Below are positions 1,962-48,041 of a DNA stretch of 48,041 bases, one piece after another. The notes beneath the pieces were generated by a model, which saw only the letters and a list, made by a program, of their open reading frames with translations, ran no database searches and was not told the DNA's origin. This stretch comes from Trichoplax sp. H2 (lineage: Eukaryota): contig NOWV01000168.1 in NCBI GenBank assembly GCA_003344405.1, positions 124,001 to 172,041 of the forward strand, written 5' to 3'. A program made the position numbers and the translations under genes. Each line of letters starts with the position of its first letter. Position 1 is the stretch's first letter.

Positions 1962-2824
1962 AGGGCCATGCAGGTAAGAAAAACATGGTCAGGGTTTCAA
2001 GCTTCCACTTTTCGTCACAGAATAATGCACCATCATTGCAGGAGTTCAGTCATAGACTAGAATTGAGTTGAGTTGCTGTAGTCGTTTGATTGTAGTCTAT
2101 GAAAAATAGTTCTCGGAAAAGTTGGAGATCTCGACTGGACCAAACCAATCGACTCACTTGACTGTCTCGTATCATGGTTGGAGTCAATTTCTTACTACTT
2201 CATCGTACAGGATAGTCAGTCAGTCAGTCGAATTTAGGGTCGAGCATGCGCTCTTCGTTCGTCCTGTCCACCACAGTCTACAGTGCACAGTATCGCTGCA
2301 GTCCTGGTACGGTAGGCATGACCGATGAGAAACCCATTTGTTTACAACCTACCGTACGCCACCCTAGTTTTATTGTTTCACTATGGGCACGATGGCCCCA
2401 CGACCATCGTGCCCTGGTACCACTGACGGTAAACAATCTCTCTATGGATGAAGTGGGTGACCGCGCCAATCCTAGTTGAGTCGATGTCTTAACCCCCTCC
2501 AATGTTGCAACTACCACCGAAAGCGGTGTAAATGCCCCGACATAACCCTATCCGAGTCATTCGTTATTGGCGTCACTGACGTAGGGAACACGGTTGCAAG
2601 AGTGGAGAAGAGAAAAAGTTGCCGACGATTCCTTCTATCCTCATCATTGCAATGGTTATCCACTGCGTTCTTCTTGCTTAGTTGATAGCAGCATTTTTTG
2701 CATTAGCTTGATAGAGTCTAGTACAAGCTACGATCATGATCGCTGTAGTTTGATTCCTTTTACTCATGGTTACCGATGGCTTTTACCTTTGATTGCTTGC
2801 AGCATAAAAGGACAATCATCAATC

Positions 2825-15995
<13,171 letters not shown>

Positions 15996-32949: not shown

Positions 32950-34918
32950 ATGGCTTACGGACCAAAGGCAGCCATCGATGACTACTTTGAATACACAAGG
33001 TGCGTTTAATGGTAACTAGGTCCATTTTAAACAAATTTAAACTAACCGTTTGTAATGAGAACATCTGTTAAAGTAGTTTAATTTCTAAATTTTAATGTTT
33101 TATGCCATAAAATAGCTATAACTATTAATAACAGCTAGTCTATTTTTTAACGATATCTAACTCTTTGATCTATCATCATCAATTCTAAATCCAAGTACAA
33201 ATCCTTTTAAAATTACATAATCATAAAATTTCAGTTTATCGTTTAAAAAGCTATATACAGTAGTTACTAGGATAAGTCAGCATGAAGCAATTACTTAGAG
33301 CGTTTGTATCCTTTCTAAGCCAATGGAAGCTCTAAGCAAGTCATTATAACAAGTATAAGAAACAAAGTAAAATTTACAATTTCGATATATTTTAGTCATT
33401 GCAAATTGTTAATGAACTGTCGTTATAAGAGAAAGGCATTAAGCGAAATAACAATATAGACTTAAGCTGTATATACGAATAGATGAACCGTTCCATTAGA
33501 AACGAGTTTCAGAAGTTAATACATTTATGTATCGTTTCTTGTGTCCATTCCACTTCCATAGAATTGTAGGTGATGACGATGGTGGCAAGTTGTTTACACC
33601 TCAGGAGTACGAGAAATATAAAAAAAGAGTTCTACCTATACGTGCTAAAAATCGGTTATACGTGAGTTGGACTTCCCCTACTGGCATCGATTGTAAATTG
33701 ATTGGTCCAGAAACACCATGTTTTTGTACACATAGGTCAGAACAACACTCATCGTTGCTAACATTGGTTGCAACCTATTACTTTTATCATCGTGTTATGC
33801 TGTATCCTTTCCTCCTTTAATTTAGACATAAGGATTGTCAATAAATATTACAGCAGATCCTGAATTAGTTTTGAACTGACGACTATCCAATCTATTCTAG
33901 ATATAAACAACATAAGACCGATTTTGAAGTTATTCCATCTGAACGACCAATTGCGATGCCATGCCGAGCAAAAGGATGTTTGTGTAAATCATATCATTAC
34001 ATTCCCGCAATGGGCTCACAGCACATAAAGTGTAGCGCTTGCAAGCATCCATCGAATGAACATTCACCTAAATCTCCGTACAAGTGTGCCAGGAGCAACT
34101 GTGGTAGCAAACAATGTCAAGGTAAATAATATCACGGAATAAGTTATGCCGGATGACCGAATTTAGAAATATACTTTAATTAATTAGTCTCCTCTTTATG
34201 ATGGCTTAAAGCAGATAAATGATGTTTATAAATATTATAATTAATCATTATATGCTGCAAAAAGAAAACGACAAGTAAGTTTACGTTAGTACACATCTTT
34301 GAAGATCAGATGCTCCTTTCAATACTACATTTCAGACCACTAACTATTGTCGGTATTAATATACTATTCCCATTTATAGCCTGATTTTCTGTAGGATATT
34401 AGCTTTACAGTATTTGGTACCTATCAATTTAGTACTAGTTACAATAAACGAATAACTTGTCGAGAATCAGCTCAGAGATAAATTTCAATTGTTGATTAAT
34501 TTAGGATTTAAAACTTCCTATACATGCTTGTGTGGTGAACTCGCTAATAAACATCAGACAATTATTGAAACCAAAGAGGAAAGAGAAAATCGTGGCCACC
34601 CTGTTAGTAAAGACGACGTTCCGTATATTGCTATGGGAGGTTTAACAGGTAATAGAACTAATATTAGATTAATTTCAGTGGCCAAAACAATTCTCTACTA
34701 TATATTACATCCTAATATTCCTAGGATTTAGCTCTTTAGCTGAAGGGTATATACGATGCGATCCAAGTGGTGCTGGTCAAATTTCAAAGGAGCAATTAAA
34801 TCAACCTATTACTTCAAGCGATCATCCTTTTCTTAGGACTTACGGCATCCCACCTATGAATAAAATAAAAGCTAAATCTGGCAAATCGTCAACTTGTAAA
34901 CTTGTCAAAAAACAGTAA
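32950..34918 (+). CDS. FAM221A: FAM221A-like Cys/His-rich protein, ~260 aa, 5 exons
   Basis: Exons 32950-32999, 33562-33735, 33901-34121, 34505-34648, 34725-34918 (783 nt). AAIDDYFEYTRIVGDDDGGKLFTPQEYEKYKKRVLP..DCKLIGPETPCFCTHRYKQHKTD..ETKEER..PYIAMGGLTGFSSLAEGY closely matches FAM221A as I recall it. Confidence 0.92.
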
Positions 34919-35872
34919 ATTCAAACCTCATAATTCGAACTAATTATAAATAACGAGGCAGATATTACTATATCGTTTTCCAATTCGTAAAGATCGAATG
35001 CATACTAAATTCTTCTACAGTCATCACAATTATATTCATTAGTTTATTAATGCAAAACAGAAGAATAAGTTTATTTTGGATTAAACATATAACAATTCTA
35101 TTCCTATCTGCTAGGCTAGATTTATATGTTTTTTTTACATTGTACGCAATCTTTATTAAATAATAATAACATTAATGGAATTTCCGTATTCCTTTTCTAG
35201 GAAAATTTAATGTAGAAAGTTTTAAAACCGTAATTACTAATAAGTACTGGTGCAATTACGTCTATTATAGCTGATAGACAATAAATGTTGTGGAAGGTTA
35301 ATAATAATAACGCAATGATACAGCAATCATGACATTTACCCACTAGATATTTGCTATACGTAAACCGTTTCATTCTCATTTTTACAAAGCTATTTCTCTT
35401 CTGTACAGCGTACAATTTTAGTAAAATCTTTACGTTGTTTAGTAGGACAGATATCAAAGACACAAAGATATACTGTGTCGCTGTCAGGTAAACGATCGGC
35501 TCCTCAAATCAGAGTACAGAAGAACTTACTAATCCATCTTATAAATTAGTCAGCGATTTGTAAGCAGATAAAACACCATTTACAAATTTTAAGCTACCAT
35601 TCTGGGTTTCAAAACCTTTTTCTCTTACCAGGATGCTGAACATATTAAGATATACGACATTTAGCAATGAATTTTCCATGCTTTCTTTTGAAAAGCGTAA
35701 CTATGGAAGACTACTTTTACTAACCTCTAACGAAGTCTAATGATGTAATACCAGCTTAACTATAATACAAGGAAGTCCAATTAAAAATGATAGGCTGAAG
35801 ATGTCGGTGGTAGCTTTACTGTTAAATTAAAATCTAAATGTACTTGCCGATACAAAATTGTTAATTTTCTGA

Positions 35873-36415
35873 TTAGGTTATTACGCATTGTTGATCTTCT
35901 AACGACTGAGCCGTTTTCATATAAGCGATAGTCTGAATTAATTGAACAAATGCAAGTTCAGTTTTAGAGTACGTTGTTGCCGATGTTTCAATATATCGAT
36001 GTTGAAATGAACTCGCCAATAATTCACCTTCTTGAAAGGTAATTTGCCGTTTGTAGCTTATTGCATCATTCTTATTACCAACAATAATACAAGGAAAATC
36101 GCTTCCAGTCACTTGGCTTAAACTTTGATAGTAATTACCAATATCGTCAAATGATTGCCAGTCGTCAACGGAAAATACTAACATTACACCATCAATATCC
36201 TGTAAAATTGATTGGTAGCTAGATAGTGCTGAGTTTGCTGCTAATTTACTAACAATTATCTTTAATTTGATCGAGTACTGACCAAATTTTAGTATCTTTT
36301 TAAATTGACTGGATCTATATGAGCTTCTGTCAGGTGGATAACGTTTTTTACAATACTGACATGCTATTGCAGTCTTACCGACATTTGAATGACCAAACAA
36401 GACAATCTTAACTGG
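35873..36415 (-). other. Ras-family small GTPase-like domain with degenerate G2/G3 and C-terminal CVIT
   Basis: VKIVLFGHSNVGKT (G1, 36394-36371), DGVMLVFSVDDWQSF, PCIIVGNKND (G4, 36079-36065), YIETSAT (G5, 35989-35975), AFVQLI, CVIT* (35887-35873). Confidence 0.9.
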
Positions 36416-39400
36416 ATTTTTAGGTATGCTCGTTTTATGCGAGCTTTTTGATAACGATCTGATCCGATGATTTAAATGTTTTAATTTTATACGAAAAGAT
36501 TCACTTTCACCGCTCGTATTGTCTCCGTCCGGATCACTGTCAGATAGAAGGTTAAAATTAGATTCTAAGTAAACAGATGAACGCTCATCACAGCTATCTG
36601 TATCTTCATAGTGAGAAAGATGTATATGGGCCTCATCTTGAACGTTTTTAGCATATGCTGAATCTACAGAACTGGTAGCGTGTGTATTTGCGTTAAGGTA
36701 TTCGGATTCCTTACAAATTGAAGCAATTTTCTCTTGTTCCTCTATATCATAACGAGAAGAGTGTGCATTCGGATCCTCTCTATCTGAGAGAGTAAATTCT
36801 GATCCTACGTAAGTTGGAGTTATTTCATTATGGCTCACAACATTCTTGCGAGACGAAAGCTCTTCTGAATCGTCATGGAGAGCAATACCGGTTGACTCTT
36901 GGTTCAGTGGAATGCTTCTATATAGGCAATCTCGATCAATGTTATCTTCTTGCAAAGGAGTATATTCACGTCCAGTGTCCTCTTCACATACTGAGCTAGC
37001 TGTCGATTCTAGACTATTTGATAGATTTACGTGCAGGACAGTTTCAACCAGGGGAATATTATCATTACAGTTAGATGAATGGTGGTTACAATCCATTTCA
37101 TTGAGTAATGCCGGAAAAGTAGATTGAGACTGATTTCCTGATTGATAATTCGCGACTGACGGATCCGACAAGGATAAATTCAATATTCCAGGACTCTTTT
37201 GATCTTCAATCGATAAACTTTCCATGCTATAAAACGTGATTTGGCTTTCATCTGATTGATGGTCGATTTTATTTATAGACTGATGAAGTTCATCCAAAGC
37301 TACATTGTTTGCACTATAATACAACCGTTTAGCATAAATTTCAGATTTGTCGAAACCTTCAATTTGATTTTGGTACTTTATTGAAATGTTATCCATGCTA
37401 TAAAACGTAAGTTTTTCAAGATGCAAGGAACCATTATTATCATCATGGTTATATCTGATTTCCGTTTCTGAAAAACGGCGTCTCGGCCGAAGTTTATGGG
37501 TGTCACGCGCTTCCATACTTGCAAAACTGGTGTTTGAATAGGACTTTAAATTATCAGCAATCACTTCCTGAATTTCTTCGGACACAATGCTTCCAACTGA
37601 ACTACAATCCAATTGATAGGATTCATCCTTATTACTGAAGCTATCACGAATCTCGTGTAGACTTTCATTGTAGCAGGCATTAGCTGTTAATTCAATTGTA
37701 TAGCTCTCACAAATTTCATCTTCAATTTTATTGTCAGTTAGTTTAGATGTTAACTCCGGAATACCACCAGCGTTGCCATCCTTTCCAAATTTTGCTCCAT
37801 CCAAATTAGACGTAAACCTTTCACTCTTATCGTCACACGCATTTTGTCTTATCAAACTTTCTGAGGAATCTACTAAGCTATAATCAGGTTCTTGACAAGT
37901 TTTTTCAACTTCCATTTCGACTATGCTAGCCTTTAGCTGACGTTTGATATCTTTCCGAATATCTTCTACAGATTCATGTTTAGTTGAATTATAAAGTAAC
38001 GTACTAATATCGTTCCCAACAATTTTCTCTCCACTGACTTCTCCAAAAACCTCAGTATTTTCGTAATTATCATCTTCCTTACAGGTTTGATTGCCAATAA
38101 CAGCTTCGGCTGTGCTCAAGTGAAACTTACAGTTATCGTCACCGTCATTGCTTTCCTTGATCTTTGCTCTGGACGAGGAAGTTGACAATATGCTATGGCC
38201 GTCATAATCATTATTTCCAACTAATTCAATTTCTTGATTACAATTATCTTCCTCGCTAATCTCCTCTGTAAACTTACCAAGATTTATTATAATATCTTTC
38301 GGTGTCAAGCTATCACTTTCATCTCGTATTTTCTCACCAACTTTCTCTGGGTTTGAATTTGTCAAGCGTGTGAATCTGTCATTCTTATAAATGTCCGTAA
38401 CTGTCTCATTATCTGTCAAGTTTACAGATGGTTTGATGTGATCTAAACAAGCATATCCTAATGCACCCTTATCATTATGAATTTGTAAATCTTGTTCTAG
38501 CCTTAATTTATTGCATTTATTCTCGTAACAAATACCTACAAACTTAGAATTCTCCTTCTCTATTCTAGAAAGAATAGTTCGAACAGCATCTACTTGGTCT
38601 ATTCTTAATTGCTTTAACTTTTCCTGATAAGTATTTCGTAAGAATTCCGTTCCTTTTCTAGCTTTGGAATTGAAGCTTTGTAAAATACTCTCTTGTTCTA
38701 TCCCTAAAGTCTCTAGCTTCTTGCTACAATTATCACCGGCAGCTTCCTTTTCTTTTTCAAGTATTGCGTATAATTTCTGGATTATATTTTCCTGTTCTAA
38801 CCTTAATTGACTCAACTCACCTTCATAGAAATGCACAGAAAATTTCCATACTTTTCTAGGTTGATAACTTATATTATTGTTCTTATATTCTTGTTCGATT
38901 CCCAACCGATTTAGGTTTCCACTGCAGTCACTGCCATCGTTTTCTTCTGGAAAGGTAAAATGCAATTTTTCGATGTCATATCTGCATTCTTGGCGAAGCC
39001 GGCTCAATTTATCTCCAGTCCGACTTATCAAAGCCTTCCACTCCTTGCTCGAATTTGATAACAGCGTTTGCAAGATGTGATCTTGCTCAATACATAACTG
39101 ATTTAATCTTTCATCATAATAACTAAGGAAATTCTCTTTCTCCTTTTTAAGCTCATAAAATAAATTCTTAACAATCTCTATTTCTTCTTTTTCAACTACA
39201 TGTAGTATCTCTTGATACTGAGATATAATCGTTTCTTTCTCCGATTCGAATTGCTTATACAAGTTATCGTTGCTACGCTCGTATTCCAGTGTCTGCTGAT
39301 TTAATACCTCTGCTTGTTGATTAGCCAATGCTTTCTCCCTAGCAATCAATGAGTGAATGCTTTCAATGGTCTCTATATCTCTTTGATGCTGGCTTTGTAG

Positions 39401-42400
39401 ACTTTTTATTTCTTTCATGTACTTACAATCCATCTTTTCCATTTCGTTTTGATGCTGGTATTGGGTATTTTTCAACTCCACTTGATAATCATTTGCATTC
39501 TTTGTCATTAAACTTTCAATTTCTTGACATTGACGATTTAAATCGTGTACGGTGTTATCATAACTCTCTCGTAAATAAGTAATCTGATGCTGAAATTCAT
39601 CATGAATGCTTCGTATTTCTTGTTGATAACAATCCTTAATGGTTTGAATTTCATGTTTATTTTTTGACTGAATTTCCCCAATTGCTATTAGGTGTCGGTC
39701 ACGGATATCTTGTAATTCCGATTGATGCTCATGCATAAGAGTATTTACGGCATTTGTTGCCTTCAGATATTTATCTTCTAATTCACAAAGCTGGCGCTGA
39801 TAAGTTTCAGTTGTATGGGCTATTGTGCTTTGATGTTCATTTATGATATTTATTTCATTCTGGTATTCCATTCTGATATTTTGTAGTTCTATTCCATGCT
39901 CATTTCGGATCTGTAGGATCTCTTCTTCGTGTAAATTCTGGATATTTATTAACTTCCTATCACATTTTACAACTTCTTGCTCCTTTTCATTGTTAACCTT
40001 ATTACAATTAATAACGGCATCTCGTTCCTTTATATTATAACTTTCACTTGATACTTCCTGTTGATACTGATGATTAGAGCTGATTATTTGCAACTCATCT
40101 CCATGCCCATCTTCGGTATTTCGCATTGTACATTCATAATTTTCATGATGCTTACTTTGAATGCATTGCAATTCTAACTGGTGTTCATTTTGAATATCCT
40201 CTATCTTTTGTAGATGACTTGCTTTCATCCGAGCTAAGCTACTACGAAATTCTTGTTTCTCCAGCTCAGATTCATTCGCAATATTTGCTATCTGATAGCT
40301 ATATTTATCTTTTAAAACTTGCACCTCTTTACAATGTTTGCCCTGAATTTTTTGTAGTTCTTCTTGATGTGTATCATCAACACCTATCAGTTCCATCTGA
40401 TCGTCATTTCGTACATCTTGCAATTCTTCGGTATGAATAACAGCACAACCAGACCTATTATAATTATCATTATATTCTCCGATTAACTCTTGAATTTTTA
40501 ATTCATAATTTTCAATCATATCGGATGCTTGACGTTGAGATTCATCTCGAATCTGTTGAACCTCTGCCTTTTGTTCTCTTATTATTGATTCAATTTGTAA
40601 ATTATGTTCACGAGATAAGATGTCTATCTTCTGTACTGCCTCATCTCGAACGCGTTTTACATCCTTTTGATGGGCTTCCTCTATAACTGTTAATTTTCTT
40701 CGATAGTCCTCATCTTTTAATCGAAATTTATTTTGAAGGGATAATACTTCTTTGTCATGAGCTTCCTGTAATTGGCACAATCTTTCATCGAATATTCTCG
40801 CCTGATTGTCAATTTGTAGCTGGTGATTTTCTCTGGTTGTCGCCAATTTACCCTCATAATCTTTTTTTAAATAGTCTGATCGGTCGTCGTATGCCTTCTT
40901 CTGCTCCTCCAGCTGTAATTGATAACCATTGAAATTCATAATTTCTCTTCCCCGAGCTTCCTGTAATTTAATCGAATAACTGCTCAAAGTTGCTTCTGAC
41001 TCCTCCAATTGCTTCTGGTATTTACTTTCAACTGCAATTAGCTCTCGAGCATGATCAATATGTATTTGACCGATATTGTCTTCAAAGGCTGTTTTCTGTT
41101 CTTGTAATTGAGTTTTGTGGTTACTTTGACATACGGCCATTTCTTTATCATAAGCTTGATGAGAATGATCTAATTTAATTTTAAATGCCTTCTCTTGCGT
41201 ATCGAATTTTATCTGATATACAGAATGCAAATTTGCTATTTCCTCATTTTGAGTAAGTTGCAACTGATTTAGCTTAGCATTCATTTTATCCTCTAGCTCA
41301 TCCATTTTTAATTGGTAAAAACGTTGTGTTTCTACAATTTTTTCGTCTTTAGCTCGAAGTGTTTGACTTAAACCGTCTTCATATAATTTTTTTCGTTCTT
41401 TCAACTGCTGTTGATGATCATCGCGAATATTTTCAATTTCTCTTTCGTGGGATATTCGCAAATTATTTAAAATATTATGCAATTCCTTCTCCTGTTCCTG
41501 TAATTGCACCTTATGAAATCCTTTCAATATCTCCATTTCCTTTATTTGAGTTATTTTCAACTTATTTATTTCTTCTTCATAAACATTTTCTTGCATTTTC
41601 ATTTGCATACGATAAACGTCTCGAACTGTTGTTATGTCTAAAGAATGATTTCGACTTTGATCATTAATTCTTTCTATCAACGCTTCTCGTTGCCATTTTA
41701 GCATCTTTCGGTGGGTCTTAATTGTTTTAGCTAATTCTTCATCATGACTCCGGTGTTTTTTCTTTAATTTATTTTCATACGTAAACTGCAGTTGCACCAA
41801 TTGTAACTGTTGACTATTTTTAGCCGTAGCCATTTCTGCGCTATGTTCTTTCAGTAATCTATCTCGTTTAGTTTGGAAGTTCTTCTCCTGTTCCAGTATC
41901 CACTCTTGATAACTACGTTTAGCTGTTACCATATCTTCCGCGTGAACATAATCTATATGCTTTAATTTCTCTTCAAAAAATTTTTGTTTTTTCTCTAATT
42001 CTTTTTCATGTCTATCTTTAACAGAAACTATTTTCTTATCATAGTCAGCCTGTAATCGTTTAGATTTTTCATCGGAAACTTTCTTTTCATCGTCTAACAG
42101 GATTTGATAATCGTCTCGCAGTGCCGTAATTTTTTTGGTATAAACTTCATTAAAGTCTTTAATTTTATCTTCATACATTTTCTCTTGATTATTCAATTGC
42201 AGTTGGTAACTATCAGTAATCATCAACAATTGTTCGTCATAATCTTTCTTGCATTGATTTAAATCATCCTGGACTGCTTTCTTCCATTCTTCTTGAGCTA
42301 AAATCATGTCATTATCAAAATTTCGTTTTAGGTGCTTCAATGCATCCTCTGTTACTTTATCTTGGTTCTTTAGTTTTACTTCGTAATTTTTTTCGGCTAT

Positions 42401-45400
42401 AACCATTTTCTCCTCGTGCTCCTGTAATGATTGATTCAAACTATAAATTAATTTTTCTTTCTTCTCCAATTCTTTATGATTTTCCTCTTTAAGTGCTGCT
42501 ATTTCTTTCTTATGAACTTGAACAAAGTAATCCGATTTATCTTTAAACACTTCATCCTTCGTTTTAATCTGTACTTCATAATCATTTCTAGCCGTCAATA
42601 TTTCTTTATCATGACTTTGACGCAGTAGGGTTATAGTATCTTCATTCATCAGCTTTTGCTGCTGCAGTTGCATCTGATAATTATGTGAAAGTGACGCAAC
42701 TTCTTCGTCATGAGCTAATTTTAATTGCCCTAAGTTATCTTCAAACATCCTTTCTTCTTTTCTTAACTGTAAATGATACCTGTCCTTTATTTTTACTACC
42801 TCTAAATCATGAATTCGGCGCAAATCTAGTAAGTTTTCTTGATGCTCTGTTATCAGCTTTTCTTTTTCATTCTGATACTGTTGTGCTAATTGTGTATTAT
42901 GATTTTCCATTTGCAATTGTAGAACTGTCATTTGTTTCTTCAAACGTTGTTCAAATTGTGATTCGAGATCTATGATATTATTCTCGTGATGCTGTATCAT
43001 CTCTTGTTTGTCTGCCTGAAACTTGCTTTCTTGTTTTTTAATTTGTTCATTACATTTCGCTTTCAAGACCTCTAATTCTACAGCATGGTTATCTTTTAAA
43101 TGACTTAAATTGATTCGCAGTGCTTCTTGCTGACGTTGCACCTCATTCATATAATCAAGACGATTCTGGGTAACTTTATTTTCAATGACAATCAATTCAT
43201 TCTTGACTTTTTGAGCAAGGTCATCTATTTGGCGTTTTAATTCTTCTATCTTCAACCTTTGTTGATGGATTGTATTGGATAATGTTTGTTCATGCTGACA
43301 TTTTAGTTGATAGTCACTTTTGATCATATCTCTTTCCATAGCTAAGACATCTTTTTCATGTTGATGTTTTTCCTTTAGCTCATTCCATTCCTGTTGCTGT
43401 TTCATTCTTTCATCATTAATATTATTTTCCAGTAATCTGATAGTTTCATTATGCTTATGTTGTAATCGCAGTAATTCATTATCATGCTGTCTCTGGCTCG
43501 CTGCTAAGTTTTCGTTATATTCCTCTATTGCCTTTTGTATCTCAATTTTTTGATCTTTCTTGACAGTATCAAAATGAATGTGCAATTCCTGGACGATTAA
43601 CTCTTGCTTCAGTTGTAATTGATGGATCATACTTTTATGTTGATTACGACAGTCTATTAACTTATTTTCACTTTCACTTTTTAAATTTTCGAGCTCTTCT
43701 TTATGTTGCTCATTTAAATTATTTAATTGTTTGCAATGTGTTAATTTATTATTTTCAAGCTGCTCCTCAAAGCTTTTAACCGTCATATCGTGTTGAGCTT
43801 GCAATTGATGGATAAAATCTTCCTGCTGTTTCTTGTAGGTGTCTATTAAATTTTCTTTTTTATTATCTAATTCGTTAATTTCAATGCTATGCTTTTCTTT
43901 AAGATTTTTTAATTGTAATTGATGTGCTATCTGACACCTTTCCAGATCATCTTCTAACTGTTTGATCGAGTTGTTATGATGTGTTTGTAACTGTTGGATG
44001 ACATTATCGTATTTCTTTCTGCAAGATTCTAATGCTTTTTCTTGATCATCTAGTTTTACTTTATATTCGTCCTTAACTTCATTTAAGCGTTCAAGGTACA
44101 TCAATTTACTGACTTCAATATGATTTTTCATTTCTTCGATAGTGTTATCATGTTCCTGCCGCAGCTGATTGCTAACTTTATCAAGTTGTTCCTTATTTGT
44201 ATCGAGCAACCGTTTCTTTTCATGAATTAAGTTATCAATCTCTCTTTTATGCTCATTCTCGATGATACTAATTTGCTTCTGGTGTATTGCTTGATCAGTA
44301 TCAAGCCGATTAATCAACTTTTTAATATCTACGTCATGTTGTACTTTTAGTTCGTTGATAGCATCTAAATATTGCATCTTAATAGTGTCAATCTGTTGCT
44401 CTTTTTCAATAGTTATGCCATCGATCTTTGCTTTCTGTTCTTTCTTTAAGCTATTTAATCGTTCTTGATTAACAAATCTTTCAGTCTCAAGTTTATCAAC
44501 AAGTTGCCTAATGGCTAGATCATGCTGAGATTGCATTTGTTGGATATTGCAAGCATGTTGCTGCTTACAATATTGTAATTGCTTTTCATTCTCCAAAATT
44601 ACATCATTTAGTTCAGCTTTGTATTTCTTTTCCGTATCTTCTCTTAAATTTTGTATAGTTTTAACTTTCTTTACTATTTCATCATACTGCAATTGCTTTT
44701 TATAGATAATTTTCGTTGACTCCTCTCTACAAGCTTTTACTGCTTGTTCTTTTTCCATAGACAAGTTATCAATCTCACTTTTATGGTCATCCATAATCTG
44801 AGCAAATTTCTTTTGATGTATGACCTGATTCGCTTCCAATTCACGCATGGCATCCTCATGCTTTTTTCTGTGGATATCAACTAGCTTTTTCTTTTCATTA
44901 ATCAAGGTATTCAGTTTACTTTTATAATCGGCTTCTAGCTGATTGAATACACTTTGTTGAGCTAATTTTTCATTTTCAAAATTTTCTTGCAATATTTTCT
45001 TATCTAAATCATTCTCAGATTGCAATTGCGCCAGCTTGTCTTTATGCTGCTGTTCTAAAGCTACTATTGCTAATGCTTTATTCTGACGCAATTCTGATAT
45101 TTTTATCTCAGATTCTTTCTTCAAGCCATGGAGTTGATTTTGTAAAGTAGATATAATATCATCACGTTTCTGGATTTCTAGCTTATGCTGACATTGAAGC
45201 TGATAAATGCTATTATCGTGCTCCTTTTTGGATGTTTCTAGTACAAGTTTCTTTTCCACCAATAACTTATCAAGTCGACGTTTATTCTCATCTTTTAAGC
45301 TTTTAAGTTCATGTTGATGCTTAACCATTTTATCTTCAGTTTTATTTTTAAGACTGTTTATAACTTCATTGTGCTCTAGACGTAATTTGTTCATTCCAGT

Positions 45401-48041
45401 CTCATGCTCATCATGTAAGGTGGCCATTATTTGTGTCTTTTCTGTATGATATTTTTCCTCCATCTTTTTCATTTGACATTGTAATGTTGATAGATCATTC
45501 TCGAGTTTCTCTACTGCCATATGATGCTGAATTTCGATTTGAGCAAAGTCATCATTATACTGTTTCTTTAACCCTTCTAAAAGGGTATCTTTCTCATTGA
45601 TCAAATTATCAATTTGAATTTTACGTTCACTTTCGATATCATCAAATTTTCGTTGGTAATCTAACTCCTTCTTCTTAAATTCATCTTGAAGTAATTTTAG
45701 TGTAATGTTATGTTCTTTTTGTAATTTGTCTGTTTTATTAACGTATAGTTTATCTAATGTGATTACTTTTTGTTCACTTTCTTCATGTAATTGTTTTAGC
45801 CTCATTTGGTACTCCTCCTCTACGCTTTTGAGCTGATTTTCGAGATTCTTGATTTCTACATCATGTTGTAATTGTAGTTGATGTATATTAACTTCATAGT
45901 ATTTTTGAGAGTCTTTCAATTGCACTTCTTTTTTTTTAGCTAGACAATCTAGCTGTATTTCATGCTCACTTTTCATAGTGTCGATTTTACGCTGATATAA
46001 TAGATCGGCATTTTCTAATTTCTCCCTGAGCTCATTTATAACTATAGTATTTTGACTTTGTAACTTATCAATTGTGTTCTTATAGTCCTTTTCTAAATTT
46101 GTTACCATCCGAATATTTTCATTATAGGTATTTTTAATTTCTATTTCATGCGCAACCTTAATGTTGCCAAGTTGATCTTGTAATGCCGTCATGATCCGTT
46201 CATTTTCATCAAGTGATTGTTTTTTTTCCATTATATGTGATTCTTTCAAACTATTAAGTTGATTTTGTAACATGGTTAGCATCTCTTTTTTTTCATCATT
46301 TGCCAGCTTTATTTCTGTTCGATGTAATTCTTTTAAGCTATCAATTTCATCTTGCAATATTGTTGATATTTGCTCTTTTTCAGCAAACGTTTGTTTCTTC
46401 TCTACTTCATAAGAATCTTTCAAATTATCAAATTGATTCTGCAAGGTTATCGATATCTGTTCATTTTCTTCCTGTAACCGTTTTACTTCCCTTGCATGCA
46501 ATCCCTTCAAATTATTAATTTCATCTTGCTTTGCGGTTAACATTTGCTTCGTGTCATCACGTGTTTGTTTCACCTCTAGTTCACATTCTTCTTTTAGCTT
46601 CTCAAGTTGATCTTGTAAAGCTGATACTTTGCACTGTTTCTCGATATATAACTCCTTCAGTTTTATTTCATGTACTTGTTTCATGTCATTTATCCGACTC
46701 TGAAGTCTTGACAAATTTTCTTTCATTACAACAATATCACTTTGATGCTGACTATTTAATCTCTTGACCTCCTCAATGAAATTCAAACGATTACATTCAA
46801 CTTTATCCATCCATTCCTTCAGAATTTGGTCATGTCCTACTTCTTGATCATGAATTTTATGATTATAATCATCTCGACAAGCTAACAATTTATTTTCTTT
46901 TTCTTTAATCAATTGTTCAATATTTGCGTTATGCTTTGCTTTTATATCTAATAATTCTTGCTGATATTGTAATCGGCATATTTGCAATTGATCTTGAAGG
47001 TTTAAATTATGTCTTTCCTCTAGATCATCAAACTTTACTTGCCACTGTAATTTTAAACTATTAATATCTTCTTCAAGCTGATTTTGCACGCTAGTTAATT
47101 TCGTTTGGCAATCTTTAACTAATTTGCTTCTTATATCTTCTTTTTCTTTCTGCCATGACCATTGCATCTTACTTATTTCTTCTTTATTTTGATTTTGTAA
47201 ATTTGTAATTCTAATCTTGCAATCTATTAACATCTGTCTGACCACATTTTCCTTCTCTTCAAGCAATGTTGATTTTAAGTTGTTTATATTGTCGTTGTAT
47301 TTATTTTGCAAGTTATTAATTTTAGCTTCATGCTCTTCTCTTATTTCTATCTGGATCGATTCTTTCTCTTTCTGCCATGATGCTTTCATCTCGTTTAGCT
47401 CTAATTCATGACGGTTTTGAGTATCGCAGAGTTTAACTTGATATTCATTATGTAAATTTTCTTTTAATAATTCTTTCTCTTCTTCACATAGTCTATTTAT
47501 CCTCTTAATTTCGTCTTCATGATGGTTTCTTGTGTTTACTAATTTGATATTGCAATCTTCTTGTATATCTCGCTCTATTACTTTCTTCTCTTCAAGTAAT
47601 GTTGATTTTAAGTTGTTTATATTGTCGTTGTATTTATTTTGTAAGTTATTAATTTTAGCTTCATGCTCTTCTCTTATTTCTATCTGGATCGATTCTTTCT
47701 CTTTCTGCCATGATGCTTTCATCTCGTTTAGCTCTAATTCATGACGGTTTTGAGTATCGCAGAGTTTAACTTGATATTCATTATGTAAGTTTTCTTTTAA
47801 TAATTCTTTCTCTTCTTCACATAGTCTATTTATCCTCTTAATTTCGTCTTCATGATGGTTTCTTGTGTTTACTAATTTGATTTTGTAATCTTGTATATCT
47901 CGCTCTATTACTTTCTTCTCTTCAAGTAATGTTGATTTTAAGTTGTTTATATTGTCGTTGTATTTATTTTGCAAGTTATTAATTTTAGCTTCATGCTCTT
48001 CTCTTACTTCTATCTGGATCGATTCTTTCTCTTTCTGCCAT
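35873..48041 (-). CDS. Giant (>4050 aa, 5' end outside window) repetitive coiled-coil protein with C-terminal Ras-like domain and CaaX box
   Basis: Stop-free frame from the window edge to TAA at 35873-35875. The ORF-track start at 47974 is a TTG, and the frame reads WQKEKESIQIEVREEHEAKINN upstream of it. E/K/Q/L/H-rich helical rod ~48041-38490, acidic S/D/E linker ~38490-36500, Ras-like domain 36415-35876. Confidence 0.9.
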   Translation of the reverse strand, partial: WQKEKESIQIEVREEHEAKINNLQNKYNDNINNLKSTLLEEKKVIERDIQDYKIKLVNTRNHHEDEIKRINRLCEEEKELLKENLHNEYQVKLCDTQNRHELELNEMKASWQKEKESIQIEIREEHEAKINNLQNKYNDNINNLKSTLLEEKKVIERDIQEDCNIKLVNTRNHHEDEIKRINRLCEEEKELLKENLHNEYQVKLCDTQNRHELELNEMKASWQKEKESIQIEIREEHEAKINNLQNKYNDNINNLKSTLLEEKENVVRQMLIDCKIRITNLQNQNKEEISKMQWSWQKEKEDIRSKLVKDCQTKLTSVQNQLEEDINSLKLQWQVKFDDLEERHNLNLQDQLQICRLQYQQELLDIKAKHNANIEQLIKEKENKLLACRDDYNHKIHDQEVGHDQILKEWMDKVECNRLNFIEEVKRLNSQHQSDIVVMKENLSRLQSRINDMKQVHEIKLKELYIEKQCKVSALQDQLEKLKEECELEVKQTRDDTKQMLTAKQDEINNLKGLHAREVKRLQEENEQISITLQNQFDNLKDSYEVEKKQTFAEKEQISTILQDEIDSLKELHRTEIKLANDEKKEMLTMLQNQLNSLKESHIMEKKQSLDENERIMTALQDQLGNIKVAHEIEIKNTYNENIRMVTNLEKDYKNTIDKLQSQNTIVINELREKLENADLLYQRKIDTMKSEHEIQLDCLAKKKEVQLKDSQKYYEVNIHQLQLQHDVEIKNLENQLKSVEEEYQMRLKQLHEESEQKVITLDKLYVNKTDKLQKEHNITLKLLQDEFKKKELDYQRKFDDIESERKIQIDNLINEKDTLLEGLKKQYNDDFAQIEIQHHMAVEKLENDLSTLQCQMKKMEEKYHTEKTQIMATLHDEHETGMNKLRLEHNEVINSLKNKTEDKMVKHQHELKSLKDENKRRLDKLLVEKKLVLETSKKEHDNSIYQLQCQHKLEIQKRDDIISTLQNQLHGLKKESEIKISELRQNKALAIVALEQQHKDKLAQLQSENDLDKKILQENFENEKLAQQSVFNQLEADYKSKLNTLINEKKKLVDIHRKKHEDAMRELEANQVIHQKKFAQIMDDHKSEIDNLSMEKEQAVKACREESTKIIYKKQLQYDEIVKKVKTIQNLREDTEKKYKAELNDVILENEKQLQYCKQQHACNIQQMQSQHDLAIRQLVDKLETERFVNQERLNSLKKEQKAKIDGITIEKEQQIDTIKMQYLDAINELKVQHDVDIKKLINRLDTDQAIHQKQISIIENEHKREIDNLIHEKKRLLDTNKEQLDKVSNQLRQEHDNTIEEMKNHIEVSKLMYLERLNEVKDEYKVKLDDQEKALESCRKKYDNVIQQLQTHHNNSIKQLEDDLERCQIAHQLQLKNLKEKHSIEINELDNKKENLIDTYKKQQEDFIHQLQAQHDMTVKSFEEQLENNKLTHCKQLNNLNEQHKEELENLKSESENKLIDCRNQHKSMIHQLQLKQELIVQELHIHFDTVKKDQKIEIQKAIEEYNENLAASQRQHDNELLRLQHKHNETIRLLENNINDERMKQQQEWNELKEKHQHEKDVLAMERDMIKSDYQLKCQHEQTLSNTIHQQRLKIEELKRQIDDLAQKVKNELIVIENKVTQNRLDYMNEVQRQQEALRINLSHLKDNHAVELEVLKAKCNEQIKKQESKFQADKQEMIQHHENNIIDLESQFEQRLKKQMTVLQLQMENHNTQLAQQYQNEKEKLITEHQENLLDLRRIHDLEVVKIKDRYHLQLRKEERMFEDNLGQLKLAHDEEVASLSHNYQMQLQQQKLMNEDTITLLRQSHDKEILTARNDYEVQIKTKDEVFKDKSDYFVQVHKKEIAALKEENHKELEKKEKLIYSLNQSLQEHEEKMVIAEKNYEVKLKNQDKVTEDALKHLKRNFDNDMILAQEEWKKAVQDDLNQCKKDYDEQLLMITDSYQLQLNNQEKMYEDKIKDFNEVYTKKITALRDDYQILLDDEKKVSDEKSKRLQADYDKKIVSVKDRHEKELEKKQKFFEEKLKHIDYVHAEDMVTAKRSYQEWILEQEKNFQTKRDRLLKEHSAEMATAKNSQQLQLVQLQFTYENKLKKKHRSHDEELAKTIKTHRKMLKWQREALIERINDQSRNHSLDITTVRDVYRMQMKMQENVYEEEINKLKITQIKEMEILKGFHKVQLQEQEKELHNILNNLRISHEREIENIRDDHQQQLKERKKLYEDGLSQTLRAKDEKIVETQRFYQLKMDELEDKMNAKLNQLQLTQNEEIANLHSVYQIKFDTQEKAFKIKLDHSHQAYDKEMAVCQSNHKTQLQEQKTAFEDNIGQIHIDHARELIAVESKYQKQLEESEATLSSYSIKLQEARGREIMNFNGYQLQLEEQKKAYDDRSDYLKKDYEGKLATTRENHQLQIDNQARIFDERLCQLQEAHDKEVLSLQNKFRLKDEDYRRKLTVIEEAHQKDVKRVRDEAVQKIDILSREHNLQIESIIREQKAEVQQIRDESQRQASDMIENYELKIQELIGEYNDNYNRSGCAVIHTEELQDVRNDDQMELIGVDDTHQEELQKIQGKHCKEVQVLKDKYSYQIANIANESELEKQEFRSSLARMKASHLQKIEDIQNEHQLELQCIQSKHHENYECTMRNTEDGHGDELQIISSNHQYQQEVSSESYNIKERDAVINCNKVNNEKEQEVVKCDRKLINIQNLHEEEILQIRNEHGIELQNIRMEYQNEINIINEHQSTIAHTTETYQRQLCELEDKYLKATNAVNTLMHEHQSELQDIRDRHLIAIGEIQSKNKHEIQTIKDCYQQEIRSIHDEFQHQITYLRESYDNTVHDLNRQCQEIESLMTKNANDYQVELKNTQYQHQNEMEKMDCKYMKEIKSLQSQHQRDIETIESIHSLIAREKALANQQAEVLNQQTLEYERSNDNLYKQFESEKETIISQYQEILHVVEKEEIEIVKNLFYELKKEKENFLSYYDERLNQLCIEQDHILQTLLSNSSKEWKALISRTGDKLSRLRQECRYDIEKLHFTFPEENDGSDCSGNLNRLGIEQEYKNNNISYQPRKVWKFSVHFYEGELSQLRLEQENIIQKLYAILEKEKEAAGDNCSKKLETLGIEQESILQSFNSKARKGTEFLRNTYQEKLKQLRIDQVDAVRTILSRIEKENSKFVGICYENKCNKLRLEQDLQIHNDKGALGYACLDHIKPSVNLTDNETVTDIYKNDRFTRLTNSNPEKVGEKIRDESDSLTPKDIIINLGKFTEEISEEDNCNQEIELVGNNDYDGHSILSTSSSRAKIKESNDGDDNCKFHLSTAEAVIGNQTCKEDDNYENTEVFGEVSGEKIVGNDISTLLYNSTKHESVEDIRKDIKRQLKASIVEMEVEKTCQEPDYSLVDSSESLIRQNACDDKSERFTSNLDGAKFGKDGNAGGIPELTSKLTDNKIEDEICESYTIELTANACYNESLHEIRDSFSNKDESYQLDCSSVGSIVSEEIQEVIADNLKSYSNTSFASMEARDTHKLRPRRRFSETEIRYNHDDNNGSLHLEKLTFYSMDNISIKYQNQIEGFDKSEIYAKRLYYSANNVALDELHQSINKIDHQSDESQITFYSMESLSIEDQKSPGILNLSLSDPSVANYQSGNQSQSTFPALLNEMDCNHHSSNCNDNIPLVETVLHVNLSNSLESTASSVCEEDTGREYTPLQEDNIDRDCLYRSIPLNQESTGIALHDDSEELSSRKNVVSHNEITPTYVGSEFTLSDREDPNAHSSRYDIEEQEKIASICKESEYLNANTHATSSVDSAYAKNVQDEAHIHLSHYEDTDSCDERSSVYLESNFNLLSDSDPDGDNTSGESESFRIKLKHLNHRIRSLSKSSHKTSIPKNPVKIVLFGHSNVGKTAIACQYCKKRYPPDRSSYRSSQFKKILKFGQYSIKLKIIVSKLAANSALSSYQSILQDIDGVMLVFSVDDWQSFDDIGNYYQSLSQVTGSDFPCIIVGNKNDAISYKRQITFQEGELLASSFQHRYIETSATTYSKTELAFVQLIQTIAYMKTAQSLEDQQCVIT
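47252..48041 (-). repeat. Near-identical in-frame tandem repeat of 330/333 nt (110/111 aa), >=2.4 copies, running off the window
   Basis: tctgccat anchors at 47371, 47704 and 48034 (spacings 333 and 330). The protein unit LQNKYNDNINNLKSTLLEEK...EEHEAKINN is repeated. Confidence 0.95.

Follow-up and report, generated by a model that had tools for sequence, protein, structure and literature searches.

Can a Ras domain go on holding a guanine nucleotide when the residues that would sense its γ-phosphate have all been replaced? PseudoGTPases are a small and recently recognised group, and most known cases have lost either nearly all of their G motifs or the catalytic residues only. The question is raised here by a locus of the placozoan Trichoplax sp. 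H2, analysed within a stretch of 48,041 nucleotides (the window; assembly GCA_003344405.1, contig NOWV01000168.1, forward-strand positions 124,001 to 172,041). On the minus strand, window positions 36215-36394 translate to GHSNVGKT...SSY and run from the P-loop of a Ras-like domain through the start of helix α2 in switch II. An initial annotation described this segment as a Ras domain that has lost the switch I Thr and the entire DxxGQ motif, and hence as a probable pseudoGTPase that might bind nucleotide without cycling and act as a fixed scaffold.

The domain forms the C-terminal head of a protein at least 4055 residues long, a wider context than the one first given. It is a pseudoGTPase by the sequence definition, under which catalytic motifs are missing (PMC10211241). 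The definitions of pseudoGTPase classes are cited second-hand from PMC10731463 and PMC12490416. On balance, the probable explanation is that the domain would act as a farnesyl-anchored, nucleotide-binding, non-switching pseudoGTPase head on a hendecad rod of about 450 nm. Residue numbers refer to P0001, the last 199 residues of the open reading frame (ORF), in which numbering equals that of H-Ras plus 17 up to switch II; the segment first annotated covers residues 27-86.

A Ras-family domain in a giant reading frame

The ORF that encodes the domain ends in a TAA stop codon and is still open at its 5′ end, at the right edge of the window (48040). Not one stop codon interrupts its 4055 codons, whereas the other five frames of the same DNA carry 183-561 stops each, or one per 7-22 codons, and stay open for at most 118 codons. 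Because of this difference, the Ras-encoding frame is not a chance open frame. The GC content of the window is 29-42%. From the N- to the C-terminus, the visible protein comprises a rod, a region of 33-residue motifs, a linker, the Ras-family G domain and a CaaX box (Table 1). A Pfam scan of all 4055 visible residues returned no family besides Ras and Roc.

The assignment to Ras rests on profile, sequence and structure comparisons. The Pfam Ras profile (PF00071) matches P0001 residues 22-182 without a gap over profile positions 1-160 of 162, with an E-value of 1.2e-26 and a score of 93.6 bits (cut-off 21.6). The Roc profile also scores on the G domain, at 38.1 bits. Membership of the Roc-COR (ROCO) family was ruled out: Roc is weaker than Ras, COR was not found and the protein ends 16 residues past the G domain. 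A phmmer search against solved structures matched RhebL1, M-Ras, R-Ras2, R-Ras and K-Ras at E-values of about 1e-15. Among the best 60 distinct sequences with solved structures, 56 belong to the Ras subfamily (Rheb-like, M-Ras, R-Ras, K/H/N-Ras, Rit1 and RalB) and four are Rab proteins (EhRabX3 and Rab21), in a ranking where Ras and Rab scores lie close together (61.6 vs 58.8 bits) and K-Ras entries are over-represented in the PDB.

An AlphaFold2 model of the G domain, computed from an alignment of 73 single-domain matches, has a mean pLDDT of 88.7, a pTM of 0.85 and the canonical order of strands and helices. In a Foldseek comparison the nearest structures were R-Ras, RIT1 and K-Ras (target TM-scores 0.86-0.91; identities of 22-27% in the structure-based alignments). 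Structure prediction and superposition, which the initial annotation had proposed as a check, thus returned a Ras fold. Such a model indicates that the sequence fits this predicted fold and is silent on whether the pocket works. In the ESM Atlas the nearest clusters, with scores of 0.95-0.97, are ordinary or atypical Ras families, among them Ras-like family member 10B/11B and Ras clusters without a name; they serve as leads only and decide nothing.

Loss of the phosphate-sensing motifs

In H-Ras, Phe28 stacks on the guanine base, and Thr35, Asp57, Gly60 and Gln61 serve γ-phosphate sensing, Mg2+ support and hydrolysis. In the Trichoplax domain the position of Thr35 is taken by Tyr52, in the middle of an effector loop that reads RSSYRSS, and that of Asp57 by Val74, at the start of the VSKLA that replaces the DTAGQ of G3. 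All four printed phmmer alignments (to RhebL1, M-Ras and two R-Ras2 chains) place Tyr52 and Val74 at these two positions, as does a MAFFT alignment with 191 related domains. In alignment A1, the column of residue 74 holds Asp in at least 90% of the 73 other sequences. The position of Gly60 corresponds to Leu77 in the ungapped alignments or to Ala79 in the gapped M-Ras and MAFFT alignments, and that of Gln61 to Ala78 or Asn80 by alignment; neither version yields Asp or Gly. The loss of the switch I Thr and of the whole DxxGQ motif holds in all alignments and in the predicted structure.

A shifted alignment that restores a DxxG equivalent, named at the outset as a finding that would overturn the claim, was ruled out. 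DxxG occurs just twice in the domain, as DIDG (residues 92-95) in the α2-β4 loop and as DDIG (109-112) in helix α3 of the model; both sit outside the G3 site, and neither lies near strand β3. The switch II segment that follows VSKLA is devoid of Asp, Glu and Gly alike. Of the 191 related domains, 153 have Thr at the Thr35 column and a further 11 have Ser there; Asp57 is kept in 184, Gly60 in 156 and Gln61 in 108. Only five of the 191 are without Thr/Ser, Asp and Gly all together.

G1, G4 and G5 are intact, as first described (GHSNVGKT, NKND and ETSA). All ten positions that hold the base and the α- and β-phosphates are kept (G10, G15, K16, S/T17, F/Y28, N116, K117, D119, S145 and A146), against none of the four γ-phosphate, Mg2+ and catalytic positions. 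This contrast has a Fisher p of 0.001, and by this count the pattern of retention is non-random. The replacements of Gly12 by Ser and of Gly13 by Asn, also listed in the initial annotation, are present but ordinary in relatives: Ser is the commonest residue at position 12 (69 of 191) and Asn occurs at position 13 in 21 of 191, so that they say little alone. The kept nucleotide-holding residues favour a domain that would bind guanine nucleotide without γ-phosphate sensing or hydrolysis.

Two alternatives take the same motifs differently. One is a nucleotide-free, class i pseudoGTPase, in which the pocket would be empty and the domain would serve as a protein-interaction module, as in CENP-M, AAGAB and the two middle domains of p190RhoGAP. 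Examples of this class with a Ras-like fold are established (PMC12490416, PMC10211241). With Val in place of Asp57 and Tyr in place of Thr35, both of the Mg2+-related side chains that lie beyond the P-loop are gone. Without Asp57, Mg2+ and nucleotide should be bound less tightly, which counts against a loaded pocket. However, the intact G1, aromatic residue 28, G4 and G5, ten positions out of ten at no more than 36% identity to any listed relative, are hard to explain without selection for binding, and an empty pocket is considered unlikely, if worth keeping in mind.

The other alternative is a GTPase or switch that works by non-canonical means: a Ser of the effector loop would substitute for Thr35, and hydrolysis or switching would be supplied in trans by a partner or by a second head paired through the rod. 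Four Ser residues surround Tyr52 in RSSYRSS, and one of them might assume the role of Thr35 in a flexible loop, which is a further point against a switch-less domain; Ser is found in the Thr35 column of some relatives, and the pocket residues are intact. Against this, switch II is left without Asp, Glu or Gly where relatives keep Asp57 and Gly60 in most cases, and Ser12 together with Ala or Asn at position 61 also removes the usual catalytic geometry. A working enzyme of this kind is thus judged very unlikely, and a nucleotide-binding domain that does not switch remains the preferred reading.

Age and constraint of the domain

Relatives of the domain are distant. A word-index search with the C-terminal 276 residues found no match among 736 candidate proteins of 2230-7097 amino acids and nine matches among proteins of 350-2000 amino acids, all at or below 36% identity and led by 'GEM-like' proteins of Mytilus at 30-31%. 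An exhaustive HMMER scan against 1.84 billion representative proteins returned 9,737 matches, and no match exceeded 36% identity among the best 150 listed. The top E-values of that scan (1e-35 to 1e-24) came from tandem multi-G-domain proteins with summed scores, and the best single domain reached 57.8 bits. Because none of the best 150 of these 9,737 matches surpasses 36% identity, no annotated Ras gene has, on these comparisons, given rise to the domain by recent duplication. The Trichoplax protein of the neighbouring gene is present in the sister collection, yet no self-match was obtained for the Ras-like domain, which suggests that the domain is absent from the gene models in the collections searched. 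The titles and abstracts listed by a literature search on Trichoplax and small GTPases mention no such protein, although no search was aimed at a description of this particular one.

Sequence variation offers a second view of constraint. The stretch 35400-38400 is present in 20 listed runs from seven studies. Variants and coverage were taken from two DNA runs (X1 and X2) and two RNA-library runs from one study (X19 and X20) over 35300-38300, across which the DNA contigs are collinear and show no indel. Of 23 coding variants, one falls in the 178 codons of the Ras-like domain and is synonymous, while the linker (36410-38300, 630 codons) has 15 non-synonymous and seven synonymous variants in the four runs. 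By chance, all 15 non-synonymous variants would miss the domain with a probability of 0.024 over all runs. In the DNA runs alone, the only ones that span the whole domain, all eight miss it, for which the probability is 0.14, and the contrast in non-synonymous to synonymous variants between domain and linker is not significant (Fisher p = 0.35); both figures weaken the case for a maintained domain. Polymorphism thus hints, if weakly, that the domain is constrained and that the linker, unlike the adjoining G domain, evolves almost free of constraint.

Old divergence, an intact frame of 12 kb, intact binding motifs and an intact CaaX box together argue against neutral decay, which the initial annotation had named, if seen in orthologues, as another finding that would overturn the claim; no sign of such decay was seen in the open frame, the motifs or the variants. 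A relic would imply that the rod is functional and that the Ras-like tail has drifted neutrally since its function was lost. Such a history could draw on the lack of any orthologue among the proteins searched by word index and HMMER scan, which also tells against the preferred reading, on the nearly unconstrained linker next to the domain, and on very recent tandem duplications in the rod, by which the gene evolves fast. However, divergence to 36% identity or less would have broken an unconstrained frame in AT-rich DNA where the other frames meet a stop every few codons. G1, G4, G5 and the terminal CaaX box are intact, no non-synonymous variant occurs in the domain, and a Ras fold is confidently predicted. 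A decaying relic is accordingly regarded as quite improbable.

RNA coverage of the domain

RNA-library contigs cover 36333-38123 in pieces. Two of them, 36333-36660 in X19 and 36341-38035 in X20, cross the boundary between linker and domain together with the P-loop, and a further X19 contig (35673-35951) crosses the stop codon unspliced. No splice joint was reported in the RNA contigs of either run. These contigs are shallow (depth 3-9), come from one study and may include DNA, and 35952-36332 is uncovered in both runs, with contigs ending at 36333-36341; these points weaken the support that the contigs lend to transcription of the domain.

They also bear on an alternative in which the domain is encoded but lies outside the main protein product, through an alternative 3′ end, splicing or an artefact of the gene model. 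The coincident contig ends of the two runs are what would speak for it. However, uncovered parts of shallow runs from one study are no evidence, and the gap was not accepted as a sign of a shorter transcript. The contigs across the domain boundary, the P-loop and the stop codon run contrary to such a product, as does a domain in frame with 3877 upstream codons that matches its Pfam profile gaplessly from end to end. The possibility is given hardly any credence.

Two side observations concern the same contigs. Contigs of X20 end at 35577 and 36341 in loose ends that are short, mutually reverse-complementary and not found nearby in the window; searched across the window, they gave one match where 1.03 were expected and one where 0.64 were expected, which is the level of chance. 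They are probably an assembly or adaptor artefact. At 35358-35472, two alternative contigs of 115-139 nucleotides that differ at five to seven places occur in both DNA runs and in one RNA run, which marks this part of the intergenic or 3′ region as heterozygous or made up of two haplotypes.

A putative lipid anchor on a long rod

The protein ends 16 residues past the G domain in CVIT, a CaaX-type box with its Cys at position -4. Farnesyltransferase can accept Thr at the X position. By the CaaX prenylation rule (PMC11254824), CVIT is predicted to be prenylated, the type of prenyl group being uncertain.

At the other end of the visible protein, ORF residues 1-3000 (window 39041-48040) contain no Pro and 22 Gly, and Glu, Lys, Gln, Leu and Arg make up about half of the composition. 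In windows of 112 residues, hydrophobic residues recur with a period of 3.667 (z 25), and the period of 3.5 has a z of -1.4; a classical heptad coiled coil is not supported in windows of this length, and the period is 11/3. The identity autocorrelation of the rod peaks at lags of 33, 11 and 111. In one block of 330 residues, 93% of rows have a hydrophobic residue at a single one of the 11 positions, and the positions at +3 and +7 from it are secondary ones. Residues 1-3000 would thus form an unusually long hendecad coiled coil, of which a giant 11-mer amphipathic helix is a less likely reading. With a rise of 0.15 nm for each of 3000 residues, the rod would measure about 450 nm. The 5′-most visible part of its coding sequence carries a 111-codon tandem repeat, truncated where the window stops, which points to a recent lengthening of the rod.

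Between rod and G domain lie two regions that matched no Pfam family. The first, with six copies of a motif of about 33 residues (examples are NQLCIEQ, NRLGIEQ and SQLRLEQ), shares the first residue of the second, the acidic linker. This linker of 677 residues is a disordered segment in the best explanation.

In that explanation the parts would work together as follows. Guanine nucleotide would be held as a permanent structural cofactor, and neither a loaded-spring switch nor GTP hydrolysis would be possible for the domain. Farnesylation would take place at the Cys of CVIT. The domain would then act as a constitutive membrane- or partner-binding anchor for the rod, which would serve as a tether or scaffold.

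Further points have to be set on the other side of the scale. The AlphaFold2 model was built from an alignment of canonical GTPases and hence leans towards a Ras fold. The N-terminus of the giant protein falls beyond the edge of the window, and the 4055 residues are its visible part. Thr at the X position is not among the typical farnesyltransferase residues listed in PMC11254824, and a full-text literature search for CVIT together with CaaX and farnesyltransferase found no papers.

Comparison with known GTPases and coiled-coil proteins

The canonical members R-Ras, M-Ras, RhebL1, K-Ras and RIT1 of the Ras subfamily are the best sequence matches (E about 1e-15) and structure matches of the domain. 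They share with it G1, G4 and G5, a Ras-like β4-α3 segment and a CaaX end. In contrast to them, the Trichoplax domain has the equivalents of Thr35, Asp57, Gly60 and Gln61 all replaced and is fused to a giant rod.

Another family with divergent switch motifs is RGK (Rad, Gem/Kir, Rem1 and Rem2). In RGK proteins, as in the Trichoplax domain, G4 and G5 are conserved while G3 is altered and G2 is not conserved, and these proteins deviate from the switch mechanism (PMC4081519). Their vertebrate G3 signature is DxWE, and a C-7 motif replaces the CaaX box (PMC4081519). The Mytilus 'GEM-like' proteins are the best named matches in the 350-2000 amino acid range. The initial annotation held that RGK proteins usually retain the G3 Asp; this is borne out in vertebrates, but G3 conservation drops in invertebrate RGK proteins (PMC4081519), and two of the five Mytilus matches named GEM-like or RGK are also without the Asp. 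The RGK-named matches, at 30-36% identity and E-values of 1e-6 to 1e-8, are as distant as ordinary Ras or Rab domains and are 353-427 amino acids long, whereas the Trichoplax domain ends a far larger protein. RGK membership was ruled out, with VSKL in place of DxWE, CVIT with its Cys at -4 in place of C-7, and no excess similarity.

Rnd proteins keep Thr35, Asp57 and Gly60 and change catalytic positions only; the Trichoplax domain, compared with them, has lost the entire γ-phosphate and Mg2+ sensor set. Rnd1, Rnd3 and the N-terminal domain of p190RhoGAP are regarded as catalytically dead, nucleotide-binding modules with binding or regulatory roles (PMC10211241). The N-terminal pseudoGTPase of p190RhoGAP binds GTP without hydrolysing it (PMC10211241). 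In the preferred reading the Trichoplax domain would resemble it in this respect.

The layout of the giant protein recalls two further groups. The large Rabs Rab44, Rab45/RASEF and Rab46/CRACR2A carry a coiled coil followed by a C-terminal small-GTPase domain (PMC8303950, PMC7645795), the same order as in Trichoplax. However, large Rabs have EF-hands and a Rab domain. In the giant protein, no Pfam EF-hand was found in the visible 4055 residues (the N-terminus lying beyond the window), the best scores of the G domain are with structures of the Ras subfamily, neither G2 nor G3 survives, and the rod exceeds theirs in length several times over. The second group, represented by CENP-E, CENP-F and Spindly, consists of farnesylated proteins in which, as in the layout seen here, a long coiled coil is joined to a terminal CaaX box, used in their case for targeting (PMC4384735). 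They are without a G domain before the box, and their boxes end in Gln (CKTQ, CKVQ and CPQQ) and not in Thr. The architecture thus recalls large Rabs and farnesylated coiled-coil proteins and matches neither group.

Feature coordinates and neighbouring genes

Table 1. Elements of the giant gene in window coordinates, listed from the C-terminal to the N-terminal end of the encoded protein after the ORF itself.
Feature	Position	Strand	Description
Uninterrupted ORF, at least 4055 codons	35873..48040	-	Encodes rod, repeat region, linker, Ras-like domain and CaaX box
CVIT, CaaX-type prenylation box	35876..35887	-	Directly before the stop codon (35873-35875)
Ras-family G domain, P0001 residues 21-183	35924..36412	-	Pfam PF00071, AlphaFold2, Foldseek
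G5 ETSA, intact	35978..35989	-	
G4 NKND, intact	36065..36076	-	
VSKLA in place of G3 DTAGQ	36239..36253	-	Val74 for Asp57
Effector-loop equivalent RSSYRSS	36308..36328	-	Tyr52 (36317-36319) in place of switch I Thr35
Tyr45 at the H-Ras Phe28 position	36338..36340	-	+17 offset
G1/P-loop GHSNVGKT, intact	36371..36394	-	Gly, Gly and Lys (nearly) invariant in 191 related domains
Linker, 677 residues	36413..38443	-	Acidic, Ser/Thr/Asn-rich, contains Pro/Gly, without Pfam domain
Six copies of a ~33-residue motif with L-x-x-L-x-[IL]-[ED]-Q	38441..39133	-	Between rod and linker
Alpha-helical rod, ORF residues 1 to ~2970	39134..48040	-	E/K/Q/L/R-rich, 11/3 (hendecad) hydrophobic periodicity
333-nt (111-codon) tandem repeat inside rod	47252..48041	-	2.4 copies, 97% identity, cut by window end

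Downstream of the giant gene and convergent with it, three FAM221 exons (Pfam PF14753; E-values 2e-34, 8e-14 and 9e-20) lie at 33527-34731 on the plus strand. In their exonic parts they are 100% identical to a Trichoplax protein named FAM221A (49 of 49 residues in one comparison, and all of the exonic portion in another), which by itself marks the window as placozoan. Further away, at 2594-3028 (plus strand), an exon matches HECW_N (PF16562, E 2.8e-20), found at the N-terminus of the E3 ubiquitin ligases HECW1/2; the same gene may include the long ORFs rich in Asn, Ser and Thr at 8652-12140 (plus strand).

Implications

The most far-reaching form of the proposal is a tentative one, possible rather than probable: that placozoans have an intronless 'Ras-headed tether' of more than 4000 residues, in which a farnesylated, nucleotide-loaded, switch-less Ras anchor would sit on a hendecad rod. 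With the same reserve, such a protein would have no described counterpart and would contain the first Ras-proper domain without G2 and G3 in which G1, G4 and G5 are under selection.

The domain flags a likely gap in placozoan gene models. It splits the nucleotide-holding half of a Ras domain, which is kept, from the γ-phosphate-sensing half, which is lost, and so provides a natural test of binding without switching. The domain sits at the prenylatable end of a very long hendecad rod, and the animal that encodes it has very few cell types. This position suggests that a Ras domain has been put to structural or tethering use and that the protein may be a lineage-specific cytoskeletal or membrane element.

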